DNA from: Escherichia phage rV5_ev147
Reading direction: 5' to 3' (one strand)
Length of the DNA stretch: 64,000 nucleotides
Sequence record: LR597647
The translations under genes were made by a program, and so were the position numbers. The notes beneath the pieces were generated by a model. It searched no databases. It saw nothing but the letters and a program-made list of their open reading frames with translations, and was not told the DNA's origin. Shown here piece by piece: positions 7,191 through 43,117 of this stretch; within the stretch, counting starts at the first letter, position 1; every line of letters starts with the position of its first letter.

Positions 7191-7866
7191 CGGGATTGAC
7201 TGGTGGAGTGTCTTTAGATACGATACAGGCACTGGAAGGTTGTTTTGGAAGTCCCCACCAAAAAACAAACCTCAACTGATGGGAAAGGAGGCTGGATGTA
7301 CTAACATGGACGGGTACAGGGATATAATCTATCGCGGCGTGCATTACTACAGGCATAGATTGGTGTGGGAGATGCATTATGGACCAATTCCAGAAGGGTA
7401 CGAAGTTGATCACATAAAGCCACTTTTCTATTCCGATGGTGTTGCTGATGACAGGATAGAAAACCTACAACTGTTAACACCAGAAGAAAACGCAAAAAAG
7501 GCGGCAGATGACGGATGCCTGGCACGCAAGATACCTAAATCTAACACTGGACACTTGGGTGTATATTTTCATGCTAGAACTGGAAGGTATGCTGCTTTTG
7601 GTAAGGTAGGTCATTACTATAAGAAAGACCTAGGAGAATACGATACCTTAGAAGAGGCCCTTGCTGCTCAAAAGTCTTTTGAAAGTGGCACGTTTGTCAG
7701 GGAATATCGTGGACAGCCTTTAGGGAGGGATAAATCTAGAGGTGTCAGATTTGAAGCAGATAGGGGCAAATGGAAAGTAACTTTCAGAGGAAAAACGCTA
7801 GGCAGGTTTGACACCAAAGAGTCTGCTGAAGCGTGTTACGCAAAGGCTCTTGCTGAAAGATTGTAA
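7183..7866 (+). CDS. HNH homing endonuclease with AP2-like DNA-binding domain
   Basis: Start refined to ATG 7183; HNH region GYEVDHIKPL...ENLQLLTPEEN; overlaps the lysozyme stop. Confidence 0.6.
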   Translation: MSNGIDWWSVFRYDTGTGRLFWKSPPKNKPQLMGKEAGCTNMDGYRDIIYRGVHYYRHRLVWEMHYGPIPEGYEVDHIKPLFYSDGVADDRIENLQLLTPEENAKKAADDGCLARKIPKSNTGHLGVYFHARTGRYAAFGKVGHYYKKDLGEYDTLEEALAAQKSFESGTFVREYRGQPLGRDKSRGVRFEADRGKWKVTFRGKTLGRFDTKESAEACYAKALAERL

Positions 7867-7934
7867 CAGTATCATTGACATGACCACACGGACGTGGTAT
7901 TGTTACCTCATACAATGTTAGGGAGGGTTTAACC

Positions 7935-8141
7935 ATGAAAGATTTTCTGTTGGCAATTTTGTTCATGGCAGCATGTCTGGCCTGTGGTGTCGTGTTTGCA
8001 GGTGAAACAGCGTATCTTGTCGATGTATATCGGGACAATGGTAAACGTATTTGCCTTTATGAGACAAGCCAAGGTGAGCTCTACGAGCTTGTGAAACAAG
8101 GCGAGGCAGGTTCCTGCCCTCGCACCCATTTCTTTGAATAA
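7935..8141 (+). CDS. Small secreted protein or lipoprotein
   Basis: N-terminal hydrophobic signal MKDFLLAILFMAACLACGVVFA with Cys near the cleavage region; GGAGGG SD. Confidence 0.45.
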   Translation: MKDFLLAILFMAACLACGVVFAGETAYLVDVYRDNGKRICLYETSQGELYELVKQGEAGSCPRTHFFE

Positions 8142-8150
8142 GGGGGATAC

Positions 8151-8615
8151 GTGGAAGACGGACGTTTAATGAAGTCTGAACGCAGGCTTATTGTGCAACT
8201 GATCCCAGAAACAGCTTGGTATAATAACCTCCGAAACGCTGTAAAGAAGAGTGAGTGGGATAAGATCCGCAAGAAGTGCTATAGAGAAGCCAACTACACC
8301 TGTGAGGTGTGCGGCGGTAAAGGCAGCAAACACCCAGTGGAGTGTCATGAACTTTACACTTTCGAAGAGGGAGTGATCCGGCTTGTCGGACTGATAGCGT
8401 TGTGCCCAGATTGTCACACATCTGTGCATCCTGGGTTAGCAAATATCCGTGGAAAGTATGCTCAGGCAGTTAGTCAGTTGGCTAAGGTGAATAAGATCAC
8501 CAAGGGTATGGCAGAGGCGTATTACCGAGACTGCTTTGCAGAGTGGCGTGAGCTTAGTAAAGTTCCAGAATGGAAGACTGACTTTTCGTGGATAGAGGGT
8601 TACCTTGATGGCTAA
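8151..8615 (+). CDS. Putative HNH-type zinc-finger nuclease
   Basis: CEVCGG...HPVECHEL...CPDCH arrangement of Cys/His pairs. Confidence 0.35.
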   Translation: MEDGRLMKSERRLIVQLIPETAWYNNLRNAVKKSEWDKIRKKCYREANYTCEVCGGKGSKHPVECHELYTFEEGVIRLVGLIALCPDCHTSVHPGLANIRGKYAQAVSQLAKVNKITKGMAEAYYRDCFAEWRELSKVPEWKTDFSWIEGYLDG

Positions 8616-36998: not shown

Positions 36999-37153
36999 CA
37001 GTATAGTGACTAACAAGAGGTGAGGGGTGACTGATTTTACTGAAGCTTTAATGATGGCCTTGTCTGTTTTAGCGCTATCGGTGTGTTTTGGGGCGTTATT
37101 CACATCTCTGGTTAAAGTTTTACATACAGTATTATTACCCAAGGAGCGCAGTA

Positions 37154-37405
37154 ATGACGAAGATTGACTTGAATGCTGGTGATCATGTTGTTGTCAAATG
37201 CGTTGGAGATTATCTTGGATTCACAATCGGCAATACTTACGAGGCGGTAGTGGCGAAGGTTTATCATGATAAAGTCCTCAGTCTTGTATTTGACTGTGAT
37301 GATGACGGAGATGACCGTTACGTCTGTGAGGTGCTGGCTCGTGACGATAGTGAAGACCAGAAATTCCTGGTTATTGAACTGAACGGTATTTTTGTAGAAC
37401 GTTAA
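37154..37405 (+). CDS. Hypothetical acidic protein
   Basis: Start refined to ATG 37154 after AAGGAG. Confidence 0.4.
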   Translation: MTKIDLNAGDHVVVKCVGDYLGFTIGNTYEAVVAKVYHDKVLSLVFDCDDDGDDRYVCEVLARDDSEDQKFLVIELNGIFVER

Positions 37406-37433
37406 TTTAAAACAACATAAGGAGACTCTTACT

Positions 37434-37739
37434 ATGGCTAAATCTAAAGTTGAACTGTTCACCTCTCTTCCTTCTGACACTGCAGAACGTGATCGCCTTC
37501 GCAAAACAATTGAAGAACTGGTGGAACTCCAGCTTCAGATTAAAGATTTGAAAGATGCCATCAAGGATATCATTCTTGTTGAGAAGCAGGATCATCTGTA
37601 TTCTCCTAAATTCATCAAATCTTTGGTGGCTACAGAGTTTGATATCCGCTACGAAGCTGAAAAACGTCGCGCTAAGATTGAAGAAGAGGTTGAGCACATG
37701 TCTGAGGCAGACATTCTGTTCAAACGCTCTGTAGAATAA
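37434..37739 (+). CDS. Hypothetical coiled-coil protein
   Basis: AAGGAGA SD; charged heptad-like sequence. Confidence 0.45.
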   Translation: MAKSKVELFTSLPSDTAERDRLRKTIEELVELQLQIKDLKDAIKDIILVEKQDHLYSPKFIKSLVATEFDIRYEAEKRRAKIEEEVEHMSEADILFKRSVE

Positions 37740-37745
37740 TATGGC

Positions 37746-37776
37746 AGAGGGGCTACGGCCCCTCTTTCACTATTTG
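37746..37776 (+). terminator. Rho-independent terminator
   Basis: AGAGGGGC-tac-GGCCCCTCT followed by TTCACTATTT. Confidence 0.5.
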
Positions 37777-37791
37777 CAAAAGGAACCAGCT

Positions 37792-38118
37792 ATGAGAATG
37801 CCAATCACTGTGAAAGAGCTAAATGAACGTGATGCAGGTGGTCTATGGCCTGCACGAAAAATCCGCTACGTCTATATGAAAGAGAATCTTGAACATCTTG
37901 ATCAACAGATCAAGGTCGGTGATATTTTCGAGGTCTTCTATTCCAATCGTCGCAACTGGGAAACCATTCAGCCTTCTGGTTTTGTTCTTGCCAAACTTGA
38001 CACTGGAGAAGTGATTATTCCTGGGTTGGATATTGTCTTCAAAATTATCCAGGAGTGGGATCCGGATAAGATTAGATATGAAGAGTTATTCGGTGAAGGT
38101 ATTATCAAACCTGTGTGA
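37792..38118 (+). CDS. Hypothetical protein
   Basis: Start refined to ATG 37792 downstream of the terminator. Confidence 0.4.
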   Translation: MRMPITVKELNERDAGGLWPARKIRYVYMKENLEHLDQQIKVGDIFEVFYSNRRNWETIQPSGFVLAKLDTGEVIIPGLDIVFKIIQEWDPDKIRYEELFGEGIIKPV

Positions 38119-38126
38119 GGTGGATT

Positions 38127-38426
38127 ATGTCTACAAAGGCGGCTAAATACTCCTATATGCCATCAACCTCTGCAGAGGTAGACTTTAGTTTCGATGTGTT
38201 TCCACTGTTTGAGGTGGTTCTGGCATACCCAACAATACTATCTACTCCTGAATCACTTGTACCTGTTAAGTTGCAGAACGCTATGCATTCCATGCACTAC
38301 AACAACAAATGTAGGCACAGATGGTGTCAGGACGAGGAAAAAGATTTGGATAGTTTGAGAGATTTTGACAGTCACCTTTTGACACCTTTCAGCTACTCCA
38401 ACCTTGATAAGCCCTCGTGGGTATAG
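38127..38426 (+). CDS. Hypothetical protein
   Basis: Start refined to ATG 38127 after GAGGTGG. Confidence 0.4.
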   Translation: MSTKAAKYSYMPSTSAEVDFSFDVFPLFEVVLAYPTILSTPESLVPVKLQNAMHSMHYNNKCRHRWCQDEEKDLDSLRDFDSHLLTPFSYSNLDKPSWV

Positions 38427-38450
38427 CAAAATATCAAATTTAAGACACCT

Positions 38451-38479
38451 AGGACGCTCTGTGGCGTCCTTTTCTTTAT
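38451..38479 (+). terminator. Rho-independent terminator
   Basis: AGGACGC-tctgtg-GCGTCCT followed by TTTCTTTAT. Confidence 0.55.
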
Positions 38480-38786
38480 CTGGTGCACGATTGCATACCT
38501 TGGGTAGTTAATCTCATTACAGAGCGTTTAAGAGCTCCCTACAAACAACTCCATATTTCGAGCGTAGCGAGAACGCACGTCCGTTTTGACCCAAATCACC
38601 ATACGCTCGGATTTTAACCAAACCCTCGCGGCGTTTCTGTTGACACATTACCGATCCAGTGATAGTATCCACACATAGTTTGTAGAATATGGAGTACACA
38701 ATGAGAACATTGTCCGAAGTTTTAGTGGTGATCCTGATGATCATTACGTCCATAGCGGCTGTTGCCGGAATACTCACGGGTGGAAC

Positions 38787-38999
38787 ATGATCAACACACA
38801 TGCATCTGAAGAGACATCCGAAGGAGTGACCATCTGTCCCTTGGCCGAGCCGGGGAAAGAGGAAAACTTCGATTCTGAAGATTCTCCATCTCCGTCCCAG
38901 GTAGACCCTGAGGCTGATGACCTGACGTGGGAGGACATCGTAGACATCTGGTTCTCTATTATGCCTGAGCACGAAGAGTTCAGAGGTGGTAGACTATGA
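38787..38999 (+). CDS. Hypothetical acidic protein
   Basis: 70-aa ORF preceded by a 29-codon hydrophobic ORF at 38700-38789. Confidence 0.3.
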   Translation: MINTHASEETSEGVTICPLAEPGKEENFDSEDSPSPSQVDPEADDLTWEDIVDIWFSIMPEHEEFRGGRL

Positions 39000-39120
39000 A
39001 GCACCGAGCCCACACCGGTTCCTCATGCTAAAGCATGGCCTGAAGAGGCAAACGTGTATAATTCCTGTGCATTAGAACGTATAAAACCCTGTTCACACTT
39101 TCATTCCCAGAGGAGATTTT

Positions 39121-39336
39121 ATGAAGATAGAGATATTTGGTGGAGCTGACAACACTCGTGGCCTGATTTACCTTGAATTCGATGAATCATACCTGCCAGA
39201 GGTGTTAAATATAGACTCTGTTGCTGAGGCTTTGGGAGTAAACCCTAAAGAACTCCACTCTTGTGCTGAGATCGATGGTTGGGAAGAGACCATGAACATT
39301 GATTTCAGTGAAGTAGAGGATGAACCGCTGGACTGA
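39121..39336 (+). CDS. Hypothetical small acidic protein
   Basis: MKIEIFGG start, acidic tail; last + strand gene before the non-coding region. Confidence 0.4.
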   Translation: MKIEIFGGADNTRGLIYLEFDESYLPEVLNIDSVAEALGVNPKELHSCAEIDGWEETMNIDFSEVEDEPLD

Positions 39337-39463
39337 CACACAATTAGCTGCCCGGCTAAAGTGCTGGAAGCACCTATAACACATCTTTCAACTAAATTTC
39401 CTACCACCACAATCACTTACCTCCCACACATGACTGTTTGCTTGTTTAGTGAGCAGTCATGCC

Positions 39464-39491
39464 TTGACATTCTTGCCTATCCTGATAAAAT
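39464..39491 (+). promoter_or_regulatory. Sigma70-type promoter with extended -10 and overlapping 8-bp inverted repeat
   Basis: TTGACA (39464-39469), 16-bp spacer, TGaTAAAAT; CATGACTG...CAGTCATG palindrome just upstream; no ORF follows. Confidence 0.45.
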
Positions 39492-39497
39492 TAAGTT

Positions 39498-39775
39498 CTT
39501 CTCTTTTCTTTTACCGAGTAATTCGGGTTTTCTGTTCTCTTCGGTTTGAAGGGGTATAGAGATACACCTGAGTGAACAGGGTGAACAACCGAACCATTAG
39601 CTATGGCATTAGCATGGCGAAGCGGACGGGTGACGAAAGAGGGGCCGGAGGACACCAGTCACTGCCATATGATATATGGGTGATAACCTGAAGAGTCTGA
39701 ATAAGTGTTTAAGTACCAGTCAGAGGAAAAGGTGAATGGTAGCCGAAGGGGGGGAGGGGGGTTTCTTGTATCTTT
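39498..39775 (+). ncRNA. Candidate non-coding RNA ending in a G-rich tract
   Basis: About 280 nt downstream of a good promoter with no ORF; local hairpin CCGAGtaatTCGG; ends GGGGGGGAGGGGGGG + T-run. Confidence 0.25.
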
Positions 39776-40806
39776 AATTTGTATATTATGTATACACTTG
39801 TAAACCAATCTAATCTGAATCTGTTTACCACACAAAGCGGATAGAGACAAATATTGCCTATTAAACTTGAATTATTTATAGAAAATACCACAACACCCCT
39901 TAAGTCTTTGATTTTACACACAAATCCTACAGATATTCAACCTCCATATTTAACATACTTGTAACATATTCCATACTCTACCTGTCTGATCAATTTCCCC
40001 AACTACATTCTCATATTTTCCCTGTCTGTACTACCCCTGCCCCGCCGGGAGTCCCGTCATATCTGGCTTTCCAGCAAATATCACACCCACAAATATCATT
40101 GCCTGAAGAGGGTTTCATCCCATAATACCTGCCTTACCTGAAGAGCGCTTCATACACCACGTAAATTTTTTAATTGACCTCCCCCTGCCCCGCCGGAGAG
40201 GTTGGCTTTTCCCACACAGACCTGAAGAGTCAGCCAGAAATATCTGAATAGGCCCAATTCTACCACGATTTTGACCTGACCTACAGGGAGGCCCGAAGGG
40301 TCTAGCTTTCAGCTAGAGTCCTTGCAGGACCTACAGGAGCGCTGCCAGGCGGACGGAATGGGAATACTTCTCATTCTTATAACAATTCTCAAATATCGAG
40401 GCAGTGAGAGAAATTAATAGGCCAGGCCGTTCACACAGTGGCACAACATTTGCAACCTATTTTGTGTGGATGAATGAGAATACCTATCATTGTGAGAACT
40501 GTTATCATTACGGGCAATTTAACATAATACCCATTATGCGCACCACTGGCGATACATACAAGGATTGATAACATGAGTTACAGTTTACGCATATAACAAT
40601 CATATTTCTTACTATTTGTGTGGGATATAGTTAGCAGCCAATAGATTAGATATTGACCTGCGGACTTCCAACCGTCTAGACGTCTAAACGCCCACACAAC
40701 AAGGATTATACATACATTACTGAATGTAAACAGGACCGCAAAAATGCTACCATACCAGTTTGTAAATTTTTCATGCAGCACTTGACAAAGAGGAGGAAAA
40801 CTTGTC

Positions 40807-40852
40807 TGACATAATGGTGACATAACTGACACGATTGACATAATTGACATGC
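40807..40852. repeat. Five tandem TGACA(T/C)(A/G) boxes at about 10-bp phasing
   Basis: TGACATAA at 40807, 40818, 40836 and variants at 40827, 40845. Confidence 0.7.
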
Positions 40853-40936
40853 CTGACTGTTCACGCTCTCATTATTCCCGCCCTTACTATTCACGCCCTT
40901 TACTGCTTACATTCTTGATAGTCTACATGCTTAATG

Positions 40937-40992
40937 GTTTACATGACTAATAGTTTACATAGCTAACTGTTTACGCATAAACTGTTTACACA
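40937..40992. repeat. Four GTTTAC(A/G) iteron-like repeats at 15-16 bp spacing
   Basis: GTTTACATG 40937, GTTTACATA 40953, GTTTACGCA 40969, GTTTACACA 40984. Confidence 0.7.
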
Positions 40993-41002
40993 GATATGAT
41001 AA

Positions 41003-41302
41003 GCCATGCCATTCGTTTGCATGATAACAATAACGATCAACAACAATAAAGACTGAAATGATAACGTTGTTGATTTGACTGACTAACAATTAACAGGCTA
41101 ATAATCTATGACATAATATAAAAGCAGGGCAACTATTAGCAGATCTATAGTTGCCTTGCTTGTTATGTCATGATTAACTAAATACAAGGCAACTATGATC
41201 TGATTAATAGTTTGCAGACAAACTATCACGGGGGTGATGGTTACTGCTTTTATATTATGTCGCGACTCCGTCGCGCCATGCCATTCGTTTGCATAGTTGC
41301 CT
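41003..41302. repeat. Composite repeat locus: 20-bp direct repeat, 18-bp inverted repeat and GGCAACTAT palindromes
   Basis: GCCATGCCATTCGTTTGCAT at 41003 and 41275; GACATAATATAAAAGCAG (41110) with exact reverse complement at 41244; GGCAACTAT/ATAGTTGCC palindrome at 41128-41155. Confidence 0.75.
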
Positions 41303-41955
41303 TATTGTTACAGATAAAATAATTGTATTGTTAATTATTTCTTATCTTTCTATTAGTCATCTAATGATTCCAGTTAGTATAGTAACGTACAGTAAACATT
41401 AGACGACTAAAGATTTCTCTGATTATGATAACTTGCCGTGACAATTTCAGACTGTTTACGAAAAATGTTGACACCTGAGCTGATTTATGTTATGCAATTT
41501 AAACGAATAATTATTTTATGCAGGTATTGACTATTCTGTTATTCTATGGTCGGAATAAATACTTAGCAGGCTATAGAATGGTGAGCGTACGTAAATTCTG
41601 AGATCTGTCGGCTATAGTTATACTCGATTTTTCACGTAGAACACGCTTTTTGGTTTGTGTAAGTGTATGACTTATAAAGATTTTTAGTTGTTGACAAGAT
41701 ATTGAAGATGTGCATCAGGTTAAATTTTGTGCAATAGCTGCATTACGTGCAATTTTGGAAGGAAAACGGGTAAAAATAGCACCGCTACCACACAATGAAA
41801 GGTTATGCAATAGTTATTTTACATGTATATTTGTACAGTGTGTGGGATTGATGGCTCGTCAATTATTCCACTTGCCAGGTAGGGCCGTTTATGGTAGGGA
41901 GGAAGAGCAGACAAAAAGAAAGGGACCTAAGCCCCTTGATAATTCAGTTAAAAAA

Positions 41956-42375
41956 TTATAATGATTCGTATATTTCAAAAATCCGATTTGCCAGGTCGTT
42001 ACGGTACCGGAATTTTTCATCACGTTTGATCATAAGATCTTTATAGCCGTACTCTTTAAGCACTTCATTAACTTTATGGCGGCACACCTTCATATTATCC
42101 TGAGCGTCACCAATAAACCTGTTGCTATGGTGCATGGCTTTAATTTCTTCTTCCAGGACCAGGGCAACTATGCGGACCGGATCAAGCTGATAGGCGGTAA
42201 CATCCATGCGGCATTGTAAACGGCTTTTTACGTCTGCCACCGGATATACTGCAACCTCTTCCCCGTCAACATTGACAATAATTAGTTTACCATCGATTTC
42301 GAATCCTTTCGCCGCCGGACCGTGACAAAAAGCGTTATCAAAGCTATATGCCGGATTATTAGATTTAATGTTCAT
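41956..42375 (-). CDS. Hypothetical protein
   Basis: 139-aa ORF with minus-strand promoter 42424-42452 and SD upstream. Confidence 0.45.
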   Translation of the reverse strand: MNIKSNNPAYSFDNAFCHGPAAKGFEIDGKLIIVNVDGEEVAVYPVADVKSRLQCRMDVTAYQLDPVRIVALVLEEEIKAMHHSNRFIGDAQDNMKVCRHKVNEVLKEYGYKDLMIKRDEKFRYRNDLANRIFEIYESL

Positions 42376-42423
42376 GGTGTTTTTACCTCTTAGTTAATTT
42401 TCTTACAACTTCCCTTCAAAAAA

Positions 42424-42452
42424 GAATATAGCAAAACTGCCGATCCCTGTCA
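42424..42452 (-). promoter_or_regulatory. Sigma70-type promoter (minus strand)
   Basis: On minus strand TTGACA (42452-42447), 17-bp spacer, TATATT (42429-42424). Confidence 0.5.
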
Positions 42453-42518
42453 ACCAGGGATAGCATAATTTTTATGTGATCAAGGGGCTTTAAGCCCCTG
42501 ACCGTGCACCTTGTTGTA

Positions 42519-42782
42519 TTATTTGTTGCTCATCCAGTTTTCCCAAGCTGCCTGATAATCTGCCTCACTACGGCGGATCTCTTCTTGCTCTTCAAGTCGG
42601 ATCTCTTCTTCCAGGTACCCCAAGATGTCAGCCTTTTTGGTCTGGCGTAGCATCCAGTCATCTTTTTTGCGAGTGAAGATCTTATAAGCTTTCTCGCAAA
42701 CCTCTTTTTTGCTACCTTTCTGGACTTCAAGAACACGATAAGCCATATATTGAACTAATTTGAGCTGATCAAGGCGTTTCAT
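42519..42782 (-). CDS. Hypothetical protein
   Basis: 87-aa ORF; 5' hairpin GGGCCaaaaGGCCC then AAAGAGGAAAAA SD. Confidence 0.45.
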   Translation of the reverse strand: MKRLDQLKLVQYMAYRVLEVQKGSKKEVCEKAYKIFTRKKDDWMLRQTKKADILGYLEEEIRLEEQEEIRRSEADYQAAWENWMSNK

Positions 42783-42844
42783 GATGTTTTTCCTCTTTAT
42801 GTGGTTTTTGTTTAGTGGGCCTTTTGGCCCGTGTCATTATCTTA

Positions 42845-43117
42845 TTACTTACGGCGGCAGAATTCAAGCGTTTTTAATTGATAATCTTCCTCAGCCTGGA
42901 GTACAACCGCCTCGATCATTTCGTTGGCATTGTTGAAGCCATATCCTTTAGCGAATTCATCCGCACCACCTTCGTGATCATGTTCTGCGTTCATCGCTTC
43001 CACGAAATGGAATTCAAGATTATTGAGATAAGGGCTTGATGTTCCGTCCTCTTTTTCGATGAGATCCCAAATAGCATTGAAACGTGATTCAACTTCTTGG
43101 TTAATCCAGCTTAACAT
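42845..43117 (-). CDS. Hypothetical protein
   Basis: Start refined to ATG 43117 (GGAAGAGAGG SD); minus-strand promoter TTGACA-18-TAGCAT at 43202-43173. Confidence 0.45.
   Translation of the reverse strand: MLSWINQEVESRFNAIWDLIEKEDGTSSPYLNNLEFHFVEAMNAEHDHEGGADEFAKGYGFNNANEMIEAVVLQAEEDYQLKTLEFCRRK

Follow-up and report, generated by a model that had tools for sequence, protein, structure and literature searches.

What occupies the left edge of the large gene-free region in the genomes of rV5-like phages? The stretch of DNA analysed here (the window; 64,000 nucleotides of Escherichia phage rV5_ev147, sequence record LR597647) is DNA of a Vequintavirus, an rV5-like myovirus of E. coli; its segment 39300-40300 shows 100% identity with Escherichia phage rV5_ev156, and a search with this 1-kb query gave matches in 120 phage records at 90% identity or more. 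The plus-strand gene cluster ends at 39336 and the minus-strand cluster at 41956, leaving between them 2.6 kb without credible genes, which correspond to the box labelled 'non-coding' on the 2013 map of rV5 (PMC3606486). The authors of that map expected bidirectional terminators in the gap and found none, and they attributed the GC-skew switch located there to the change in the direction of transcription (PMC3606486). The interval 39464-39775, which forms the left edge of the box, had been picked out in a preliminary description as a promoter driving an ORF-less transcript, possibly a regulated small RNA, that ends in a G-rich tract. The promoter is absent from the published promoter table of rV5 (PMC3606486), a literature search returned nothing on the locus and no evidence of a transcript, and some GenBank records annotate hypothetical proteins at this place.

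The locus exists in two sequence types. Type A is found in 118 GenBank Vequintavirus records at 95-100% identity, while type B, which shares ~70% identity with type A, is represented by eight metagenomic contigs, five of them from phage-sized assemblies of 121-141 kb, and by no isolate in the GenBank phage collection. IMG/VR and metagenomes were scanned with exact patterns of three conserved blocks, and nhmmer was then run over all of the loci fetched; scanning with the most conserved block recovered additional type-A copies as well as type B, and no lineages besides these two were detected. The remaining pattern hits were chance matches, including one (L023) that was checked by inspection and found to be unrelated. 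A third lineage, consisting of A73 and LTH01, carries the flanking 139-aa gene at 86% amino-acid identity and has the tract G5AG5AG5 in its non-coding gap, in the same orientation. Since nhmmer and Smith-Waterman comparisons of these two genomes with the RNA body detect the G-tract only, homology of the RNA body is not claimed for them. The phAPEC8-type phages have the flanking 139-aa gene in common, and their adjacent non-coding gap is devoid of a G-tract and of similarity to the locus. Synteny based on the DsbA-like regulator did not reach other genera, Mydovirus and Seunavirus having this gene elsewhere. In one type-B contig (L007), an HNH homing-endonuclease gene is found on the other strand ~70 nt past the G-tract.

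The locus is also the least variable part of its surroundings. In an alignment of 17 type-A genomes spanning 5.3 kb, 7-8% of the columns are variable in 39520-39719, which is the minimum of the whole 5.3 kb compared. The corresponding value is 13-79% for the neighbouring genes, with 20-37% for the adjacent 71-aa gene and up to 79% for genes further upstream, and 46% immediately beyond the G-tract. Sequence conservation stops at the G-tract, and several type-A genomes diverge right after GGGG-TT.

The promoter, a sigma-70 promoter on the plus strand (39464-39491), comprises a -35 hexamer TTGACA (39464-39469), a 16-nt spacer, a TG dinucleotide (39483-39484) and the hexamer TAAAAT (39486-39491). 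The sequence TTGACA-16-TGaTAAAAT is as initially described, an 11/12 match with an extended -10, and only two sites of this quality, the studied promoter included, are present in 37000-43000. Transcription would start near 39497-39499. The hexamers are invariant in the 17 type-A genomes, one of which has a 2-nt insertion in the spacer, and type B has a promoter at the same place (TTGCAA-17-TGcTATAAT). The hexamers and the TG are therefore kept in both types, while the spacer differs in sequence and varies between 16 and 18 nt in length.

Upstream of the promoter, the preliminary description had placed an operator-like palindrome overlapping it. Both arms of the 8-bp inverted repeat are present in the sequence (CATGACTG at 39429-39436 and CAGTCATG at 39454-39461), but the repeat ends 2 nt before the -35 hexamer and does not overlap the promoter. 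As RNA, the plus strand of 39429-39461 forms a 14-bp hairpin with a 5-nt loop (ΔG = -18.4 kcal/mol; z = -6.4 relative to shuffled sequences), four of whose pairs are G-U and can form in plus-strand RNA only. In type B, an unrelated hairpin (8-10 bp, 4-8-nt loop) occupies the corresponding position, immediately upstream of the -35 hexamer, and the variants inside each type keep the stem, some of them through U-G pairs. It is thus the position and the ability to form a hairpin that are conserved, and not the sequence, the arm length or the loop length. A repressor operator, which needs fixed half-sites and spacing and an overlap with the promoter, is not supported, given the differences between types A and B, the G-U pairs and the 2-nt gap to the -35 hexamer. 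The lack of conservation of sequence and spacing, together with pairs that can form on one strand only, points to an RNA hairpin belonging to the upstream operon instead of a site for a dimeric repressor. As it is not followed by a U-run, it is not a classical terminator either, and it is probably a 3'-end, insulator or stabiliser hairpin of the upstream plus-strand operon.

The region downstream of the promoter opens with a pyrimidine (CU) tract, UUCUUCUCUUUUCUUUU (39496-39512), which consists entirely of pyrimidines in both types, with different sequences, and is a candidate pairing partner of the G-tract. It is followed by hairpin H1 (39514-39526; CCGAG-UAA-UUCGG) and GUUUUCUGUU, which the terminator scan flags as weakly terminator- or attenuator-like; in type B, H1 reads CCAGAA-UACGC-UUCUGG, with two base pairs changed on both sides. 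Hairpin H2 (39529-39562), with pyrimidines in its 5' arm, purines in its 3' arm and the conserved apex CUUC-GGUUU-GAAG, is present in both types. H1 and H2 together fold with -17.4 kcal/mol (z = -2.8), and the A/G polymorphism at 39558 retains a U-A or a U-G pair, on the plus strand only. Hairpin P5 (39658-39684; GUCAC-UG-CCAUAU-GAU-AUAUGG-GUGAU, with the triloop at 39671-39673) occurs in six sequence variants in type A, in all of which the stem is intact: the triloop takes up four of the changes, another produces a U-G closing pair and the last is located 5' of the stem. In type B, P5 has the same architecture (lower stem, bulge, AU-rich upper stem and triloop) built from a different stem sequence, and in one sequence (L011) a U-to-C change strengthens a pair. 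The local stem-loops suggested at first sight are supported by comparison, H1, H2 and P5 being kept in both types through different sequences. Two blocks of the RNA are, on the other hand, almost invariant in sequence. Block 1, CUGAGUGAACAGgGUGAACAaCCGAA (39568-39593), is identical between types A and B at 24 of its 26 positions and shows zero variation in the 17 type-A genomes, and block 2, AGuGUUUAAGUACCAG (39704-39719), is identical in the two types but for one base; both blocks are probably exposed. An 11-12-nt unit is duplicated at 39595-39618, the sole repeat of its kind within the RNA.

The RNAalifold consensus contains 47 pairs, ten of them with compensatory changes, each of which counts as a single evolutionary event because only two sequence types are available. 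The consensus folds of types A and B disagree in the middle of the RNA, and a global fold is not claimed, since the whole-RNA fold shows no extra stability relative to shuffled sequences (z = -0.76). In the consensus, the CU tract and the G-tract pair as a terminal helix, which also appears in the minimum-energy folds of the window and of L007 and is absent from that of L012; this pairing is beyond the reach of covariation because any pyrimidine pairs with G.

The plus-strand ORFs of the interval are short (19-39 aa), have no convincing Shine-Dalgarno sequence and are not conserved in type B. Every frame is broken between the types by 1- and 5-nt indels, so that types A and B share no ORF in frame, and the one GTG start common to both runs out of frame after seven codons. 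The locus is thus indeed ORF-less, as first described, and the ORFs annotated here in a few records are spurious. The covariance-model search against Rfam that the preliminary description had called for was run and yielded no known-family match for the locus: with Rfam 15 there were no hits at gathering thresholds in the whole window, and at E ≤ 10 in 39300-42000 there were two chance hits only, both outside the interval. A search for tRNA and tmRNA genes found none. The CUGANGA core of a hammerhead ribozyme occurs in CCUGAAGAG and CCTGAAGAG, but a hammerhead was rejected, as no ribozyme model scores at E ≤ 10, inspection gave no convincing stem III and this copy of the motif is deleted in part of type B. 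The GGA motifs typical of CsrA binding are not enriched (five observed versus seven expected). A search for targets of the RNA yielded none: complementarity of the conserved blocks to the rest of the rV5 genome is at chance level and no similarity to the RNA was found among 5,426 E. coli genomes.

The G-tract, GGGGGGGAGGGGGG (39748-39761), lies on the plus strand ~250 nt from the predicted start and marks both the end of conservation and the presumed 3' boundary of the RNA. The G-rich tract of the preliminary description is therefore present, with the length G7AG6 in place of the G7AG7 given there. The T-run said to follow it is also present in the window (TTTCTT, directly after the tract), but is not conserved across relatives, the tract being followed by TTAGGCAC in type B, by TTACCTAC in some type-A genomes and by TCCGATG in A73. 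No other place on the plus strand of the 64-kb window has at least 11 G in 14 nt, and the same holds, on its strand, for the counterpart of the tract in the complete rV5 genome of 137,947 bp. G4Hunter likewise gives its highest peak in the window at the tract, the other strong peaks being found only 280-430 bp downstream, on the opposite strand. The run lengths differ even between genomes that are almost identical otherwise: they are G4-7 A G5-6 in type A, most genomes having G5AG6, and G4-6 (T)A/T G5-6 in type B, while A73 and LTH01 have G5AG5AG5; some of the differences among assemblies may be homopolymer errors. Both strands of the complete rV5 genome lack a canonical quadruplex motif (four runs of at least three G with loops of 1-7 nt). 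The quadruplex envisaged in the preliminary description can thus not be the canonical four-run intramolecular form; because the tract has two long runs, the possible forms are two-layer, intermolecular or RNA:DNA hybrid quadruplexes.

No intrinsic terminator is predicted at the tract. None was called at 39740-39775, where there is no local C-rich partner and where type B and A73 lack the U-run, and the terminator scan predicted zero terminator-like sites on the plus strand in 39526-41221, that is, to ~1.4 kb past the G-tract. Beyond the tract, a block of distinct composition (39762-40250, plus strand) comprises ~100 bp of AT-rich DNA (60-71% AT) and then ~300-400 bp of C-rich, G-poor DNA with a GC skew of -0.3 to -0.63, and may be where Rho loads and ends transcription or, alternatively, where the DNA unwinds. 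The order G-rich, G-tract, AT-rich, C-rich is common to type A, type B and A73/LTH01: in the three lineages, the 100 nt before the end of the tract contain 34-40% G, the next 100 nt past the tract 60-71% AT and the following 300 nt 28-31% C and 10-17% G. Since A73 and LTH01 keep the tract and this composition without the RNA body, the tract may have a role that is independent of the RNA, and a role in cis is favoured.

The reading that best accounts for the locus, to which we assign a probability of about 0.5, is that of an unannotated gene of rV5-like phages for a stable non-coding RNA of ~265 nt with its 3' end set at the G-tract. The presence of the promoter in two sequence types, the absence of a shared reading frame, the hairpins maintained through different sequences and the conservation that stops at the G-tract all fit an RNA gene, in line with the small RNA first proposed. 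We infer the existence of the transcript, the way in which its 3' end is made and its action in trans as follows. The sigma-70 host RNA polymerase would initiate at the strong extended -10 promoter, near 39497, while the hairpin at 39429-39461 would close the transcript of the preceding operon, thereby giving the RNA its own 5' end. The RNA would remain untranslated and would display at least three conserved hairpins (H1, H2 and P5), with the two invariant blocks between them. Being G-rich and C-poor (31% G and 16% C), it should be a poor substrate for Rho, in contrast to the C-rich, G-poor 400 nt downstream; the polymerase would pass the tract and enter the AT-rich and then the C-rich, G-poor stretch, where Rho would release it. 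Exonucleases would then trim the 3' end back to the G-tract, where a helix with the 5' CU tract or a quadruplex would stop them. The product would be a stable early RNA acting in trans on a protein or RNA partner through the invariant blocks, which are likely to be its contact surfaces.

There is a precedent for such a gene in this group of phages. Pseudo-ToxI of phiTE is a non-coding RNA with an anti-defence role, encoded in an ORF-free locus of an rV5-like myovirus (PMC3475682), which shows that ORF-free loci of rV5-like phages can be functional RNA genes. Unlike pseudo-ToxI, which is an antitoxin mimic made of a tandem 36-nt repeat, the RNA studied here has no comparable array, and it has no Rfam hit. 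6S RNA and the Y RNAs are stable RNAs closed by base pairing between their 5' and 3' ends, and the terminal helix predicted here, in which the CU tract pairs with the G-tract, would likewise shield the RNA at both ends; there is no match to these families in sequence or structure, and the helix consists almost entirely of G-U and G-C pairs. On this reading, the locus represents a new RNA family within a familiar general class, that of non-coding RNAs encoded by phages, with an unusual boundary element.

A second reading, the main rival but clearly less probable, places the function in replication. The G-rich transcript would form an R-loop or hybrid quadruplex at the tract, the nascent RNA pairing with the G-rich non-template strand so that transcription stalls or terminates, and would prime leading-strand synthesis by the T7-like DNA polymerase in the AT-rich stretch, the non-coding region being the origin. 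The locus might then be, with the same reservation, the leading-strand priming module of the Vequintavirus origin, in which a PIF1-like helicase resolves the hybrid and the sequence types and the P5 triloop act as specificity or copy-control determinants. Such a mechanism would parallel those of the mitochondrial LSP-CSB II system, ColE1 RNA II and the T7 primary origin.

By analogy, the closest counterpart of the G-tract is found in mitochondrial DNA. Transcription ends and primers arise at CSB II through a G5AG7 core, with either the mitochondrial or the T7 RNA polymerase, and this G5AG7 alone forms no DNA quadruplex (PMC4176368). The nascent RNA folds into a quadruplex, or into a hybrid quadruplex with the non-template strand that stabilises the R-loop, so that an R-loop primer is left (PMC4176368; PMC3488243), and Pif1 has been proposed to resolve the hybrid (PMC3488243). 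The rV5 tract (G5AG6 and TTT) is nearly the same motif as human CSB II, both being a G-run, an A and a second G-run followed by T's on the non-template strand (GGGGGAGGGGGGGTTTG in CSB II and GGGGGAGGGGGGTTT in rV5), and the G7AG6 of the window also conforms to the CSB II-type sequence, G5-7 A G5-7 on the non-template strand downstream of a promoter. In both systems the tract is located one to a few hundred nucleotides past the promoter, within the main non-coding region, and is polymorphic in run length. The genome moreover encodes a T7-type DNA polymerase and a Pif1-type helicase, the relevant rV5 genes being those for a T7-like DNA polymerase, a gp4-like primase-helicase, an SP6-like exonuclease and a PIF1-domain helicase. 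On the other hand, the phage locus would use a bacterial multi-subunit polymerase, its T-run is not conserved across the rV5-like lineages and its upstream RNA differs from CSB II primers in its length, its structure and its very strong conservation.

The likeness to ColE1 RNA II lies in a sigma-70-driven, untranslated and structured transcript of a few hundred nucleotides, with discrete sequence types and a variable loop; in the phage, the types and the variable P5 triloop may correspond to the specificity loops of ColE1. According to Masukata and Tomizawa, a G-run in RNA II reportedly helps to form a persistent hybrid with the template. The phage differs in having no RNA I-like antisense gene that could be found, no known RNase H site and no Rfam match, and in possessing its own replisome. 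The T7 primary origin and the T4 origins oriF and oriG are transcript-primed and consist of a promoter followed by an AT-rich unwinding region, an arrangement that recurs at the phage locus, and rV5 has a T7-like set of polymerase and primase-helicase. Those origins, however, have neither a G-tract nor a long, conserved, structured RNA, and T7 has its own RNA polymerase.

The uniqueness of the tract in the genome, with strong G4Hunter peaks elsewhere only on the other strand 280-430 bp downstream, and the persistence of the G-rich, G-tract, AT-rich order in three lineages, including A73/LTH01 without the RNA body, also agree with priming. Tandem iteron-like arrays, ~1 kb from the G-tract, and a 24% GC island in the same non-coding region are circumstantial evidence in the same direction. 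Against it, skew analysis of rV5 points to transcription-linked switches only, and, as the genes converge on the region, replication forks moving out of it would run against the direction of transcription. No tract of this sort is known to halt E. coli RNA polymerase, the T-run varies between lineages, A73 has no predicted strong promoter upstream of its tract and no antisense regulator was identified. In addition, 265 nt of near-invariant sequence exceed the needs of a primer.

It is unlikely that the locus acts purely at the DNA level, with the blocks, the G-tract and the repeats being protein-binding or structural sites for replication, packaging or nucleoid organisation and the promoter being incidental or serving only to open the DNA. 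This reading draws on the two GTGAACA copies in block 1, an inverted form of TGTTYAC, the iteron-like repeat that occurs downstream and at 39090, on the conservation of the tract and motifs, and not of the RNA, in A73 and LTH01, and on CCTGAAGAG and other motifs that are strongly over-represented and strand-biased. CCTGAAGAG occurs eight times in the window against 0.47 copies expected, five of the eight lying within 39039-40229; the plus-strand copy at 39687-39695 is one of five same-strand copies in or just upstream of the non-coding region, and must be dispensable for the RNA because it is deleted in part of type B. The G-U pairs of the hairpins and the substitutions that create such pairs reveal, however, a constraint on one strand, and the promoter hexamers are conserved across the types despite the change in the spacer. 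A packaging role meets the further difficulty that Vequintaviruses are packaged by a headful mechanism and are circularly permuted, with no fixed ends in this region (PMC8407724). For the same reason, physical genome ends in the region were rejected, and the ends of records found there are assembly choices. The poly-G tract coincides with at least one contig end.

Very unlikely is a short sRNA or attenuator, in which most transcripts would stop at H1 and its U-run (~39535) to give an RNA of ~40 nt, the remainder being conditional read-through. The single-stranded, CU-rich seed followed by a terminator hairpin is the usual build of Hfq-type sRNAs, a form that the CU tract, H1 and the U-run reproduce, and CCGAGTAATTCGG with GTTTTCTGTT is flagged as terminator-like by the scan, the hairpin and its U/C-rich tail being kept in type B through compensatory changes. 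Nevertheless, the stem is weak (4-6 bp), the U-run doubles as the 5' arm of H2 and the strongest conservation, in 39520-39719, lies downstream of H1. A small protein, such as that of the 39-aa GTG ORF at 39572-39691, is close to excluded on the available sequences, for, despite the plus-strand ORFs of 19-39 aa and the hypothetical proteins of some GenBank records, a convincing Shine-Dalgarno sequence is absent and the indels break all frames, the products being unrelated past residue 7.

Phages of the rV5-like group are isolated widely and find use in cocktails for therapy and biocontrol. Within the 2.6-kb box that has stood unexplained on their map since 2013, the most strongly constrained element has now been identified, together with its boundaries, promoter, hairpins and unique G-tract, and an RNA gene should replace the spurious hypothetical ORFs in the annotation of the locus. 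Two hypotheses that can be tested now follow for the element: it encodes a stable RNA that acts in trans, or it is an origin primed by a transcript. Were priming to prove true, a phage with a T7-like replisome would prime its replication at a G-tract in the manner of mitochondria, a bacterial-virus counterpart of D-loop priming, and this would be relevant to the long discussion of whether the machinery that replicates mitochondrial DNA descends from phages.

Within 200 nt of the proposed non-coding RNA that are otherwise invariant, the triloop of hairpin P5 (39671–39673) is a hotspot of substitution, at which GAU, GGU, AGU and GAC are found, together with one further variant that has a U-G closing pair; either the triloop is unconstrained or diversifying selection acts on the loop. 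The G-tract in which the conserved part of the RNA ends (39748–39761) and its homologues vary in run length between near-identical genomes, from G7AG6 in the window to G5AG6 in rV5 and most other genomes, with G6AG6, G5AG5 and G4AG6 also represented, and these differences may reflect real slippage or homopolymer sequencing error. The end of one 2-kb GenBank contig falls no more than about 10 nt from the tract. In L007, a contig of the metagenomic type-B lineage, a gene for a 256-amino-acid HNH endonuclease (7716–8486; PF13392, E = 1.6e-18), encoded on the strand opposite the G-tract, ends approximately 70 nt past it, a position that identifies the tract as the boundary of a module.

Close by lie two copies of the C-rich repeat CCCCTGCCCCGCCGG (40031–40048 and 40179–40196), which are G-rich on the minus strand. 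The rV5 counterparts of these two copies and of the G-tract all fall within 450 bp, and they supply three of the top five G4Hunter peaks in the whole rV5 genome. A73, from the third lineage, carries two copies of a related repeat, CCCCCGCCATACTCTGGCAAT, plus a third, degenerate one. The motif CCTGAAGAG occurs eight times in the window, against an expectation of 0.47; five copies, all on the plus strand, lie in the non-coding region and just upstream of it (39039, 39687, 40102, 40137 and 40221), and the remaining three are in-frame Pro-Glu-Glu codons. Five copies in the equivalent orientation are also present in L007, and A73 has a single copy of the motif, as GGCCTGAAGAGGC.

Farther along the non-coding region, three tandem arrays abut at 40807–40974, composed of 4.7 copies of TGACATAAT, 3.3 copies of CCTTACTATTCACGC and 3.5 copies of a 16-nt unit of the TAGTTTACATGCT type. 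This iteron-like cluster, to which TGACATAA is confined in the window, varies more among type-A genomes than anything else in the region (85–99% variable columns). A perfect 18-nt inverted repeat follows, the arms of which (41110–41127 and 41244–41261) are separated by 116 nt, with AGGGCAACTAT-type repeats in both orientations between and around them, in a stretch that includes 41220–41319. A second island of high conservation (8% variable columns) contains one of the arms and adjoins a stretch of 24% GC at 41300–41399. Several independent Vequintavirus records, namely those of YN3, Gotham, ECP2309, EcoIv14a_Aya, the bov phages and isim, start or end at positions that map to approximately 40350–40810 of the window. 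Since these phages are circularly permuted, such ends are assembly or orientation choices, and the repeats probably favour their falling in the non-coding region.

Directly past the final gene of the minus-strand cluster, a terminator-like hairpin with a T-run on that strand (AAGGGGCTTAGGTCCCTT TCTTTTTG; 41920–41937) may be one of the terminators that the 2013 rV5 genome paper (PMC3606486) expected here yet left unlisted. On the other side, 1.7 kb upstream of the RNA, lies a 101-amino-acid gene (37434–37739) to which some records assign the product name DsbA-like double-stranded-DNA-binding transcriptional regulator. The gene is conserved, with 42–58% identity, in Mydovirus, Seunavirus, Certrevirus and further rV5-like genera, where its gene neighbourhood differs.

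The most conserved block of the RNA contains, at 39572–39582, the sequence GTGAACAGGGT, complementary to ACCCTGTTCAC (39086–39096) in the leader of a 71-amino-acid gene, a match that is at chance level by a genome-wide count. The type-B counterparts, GTGAACAGC and GCTGTTCAC, differ by one compensating change, and the complementary site there lies after the 71-amino-acid gene rather than in its leader. TGTTYACRC-type repeats cluster, within the window, in the non-coding region (plus-strand copies at 39090, 39822, 40582, 40858, 40888, 40968, 40983 and 41453), and two inverted copies (GTGAACA; 39572–39578 and 39581–39587) fall inside the most conserved block, which suggests that this block might also be read by a DNA-binding protein.
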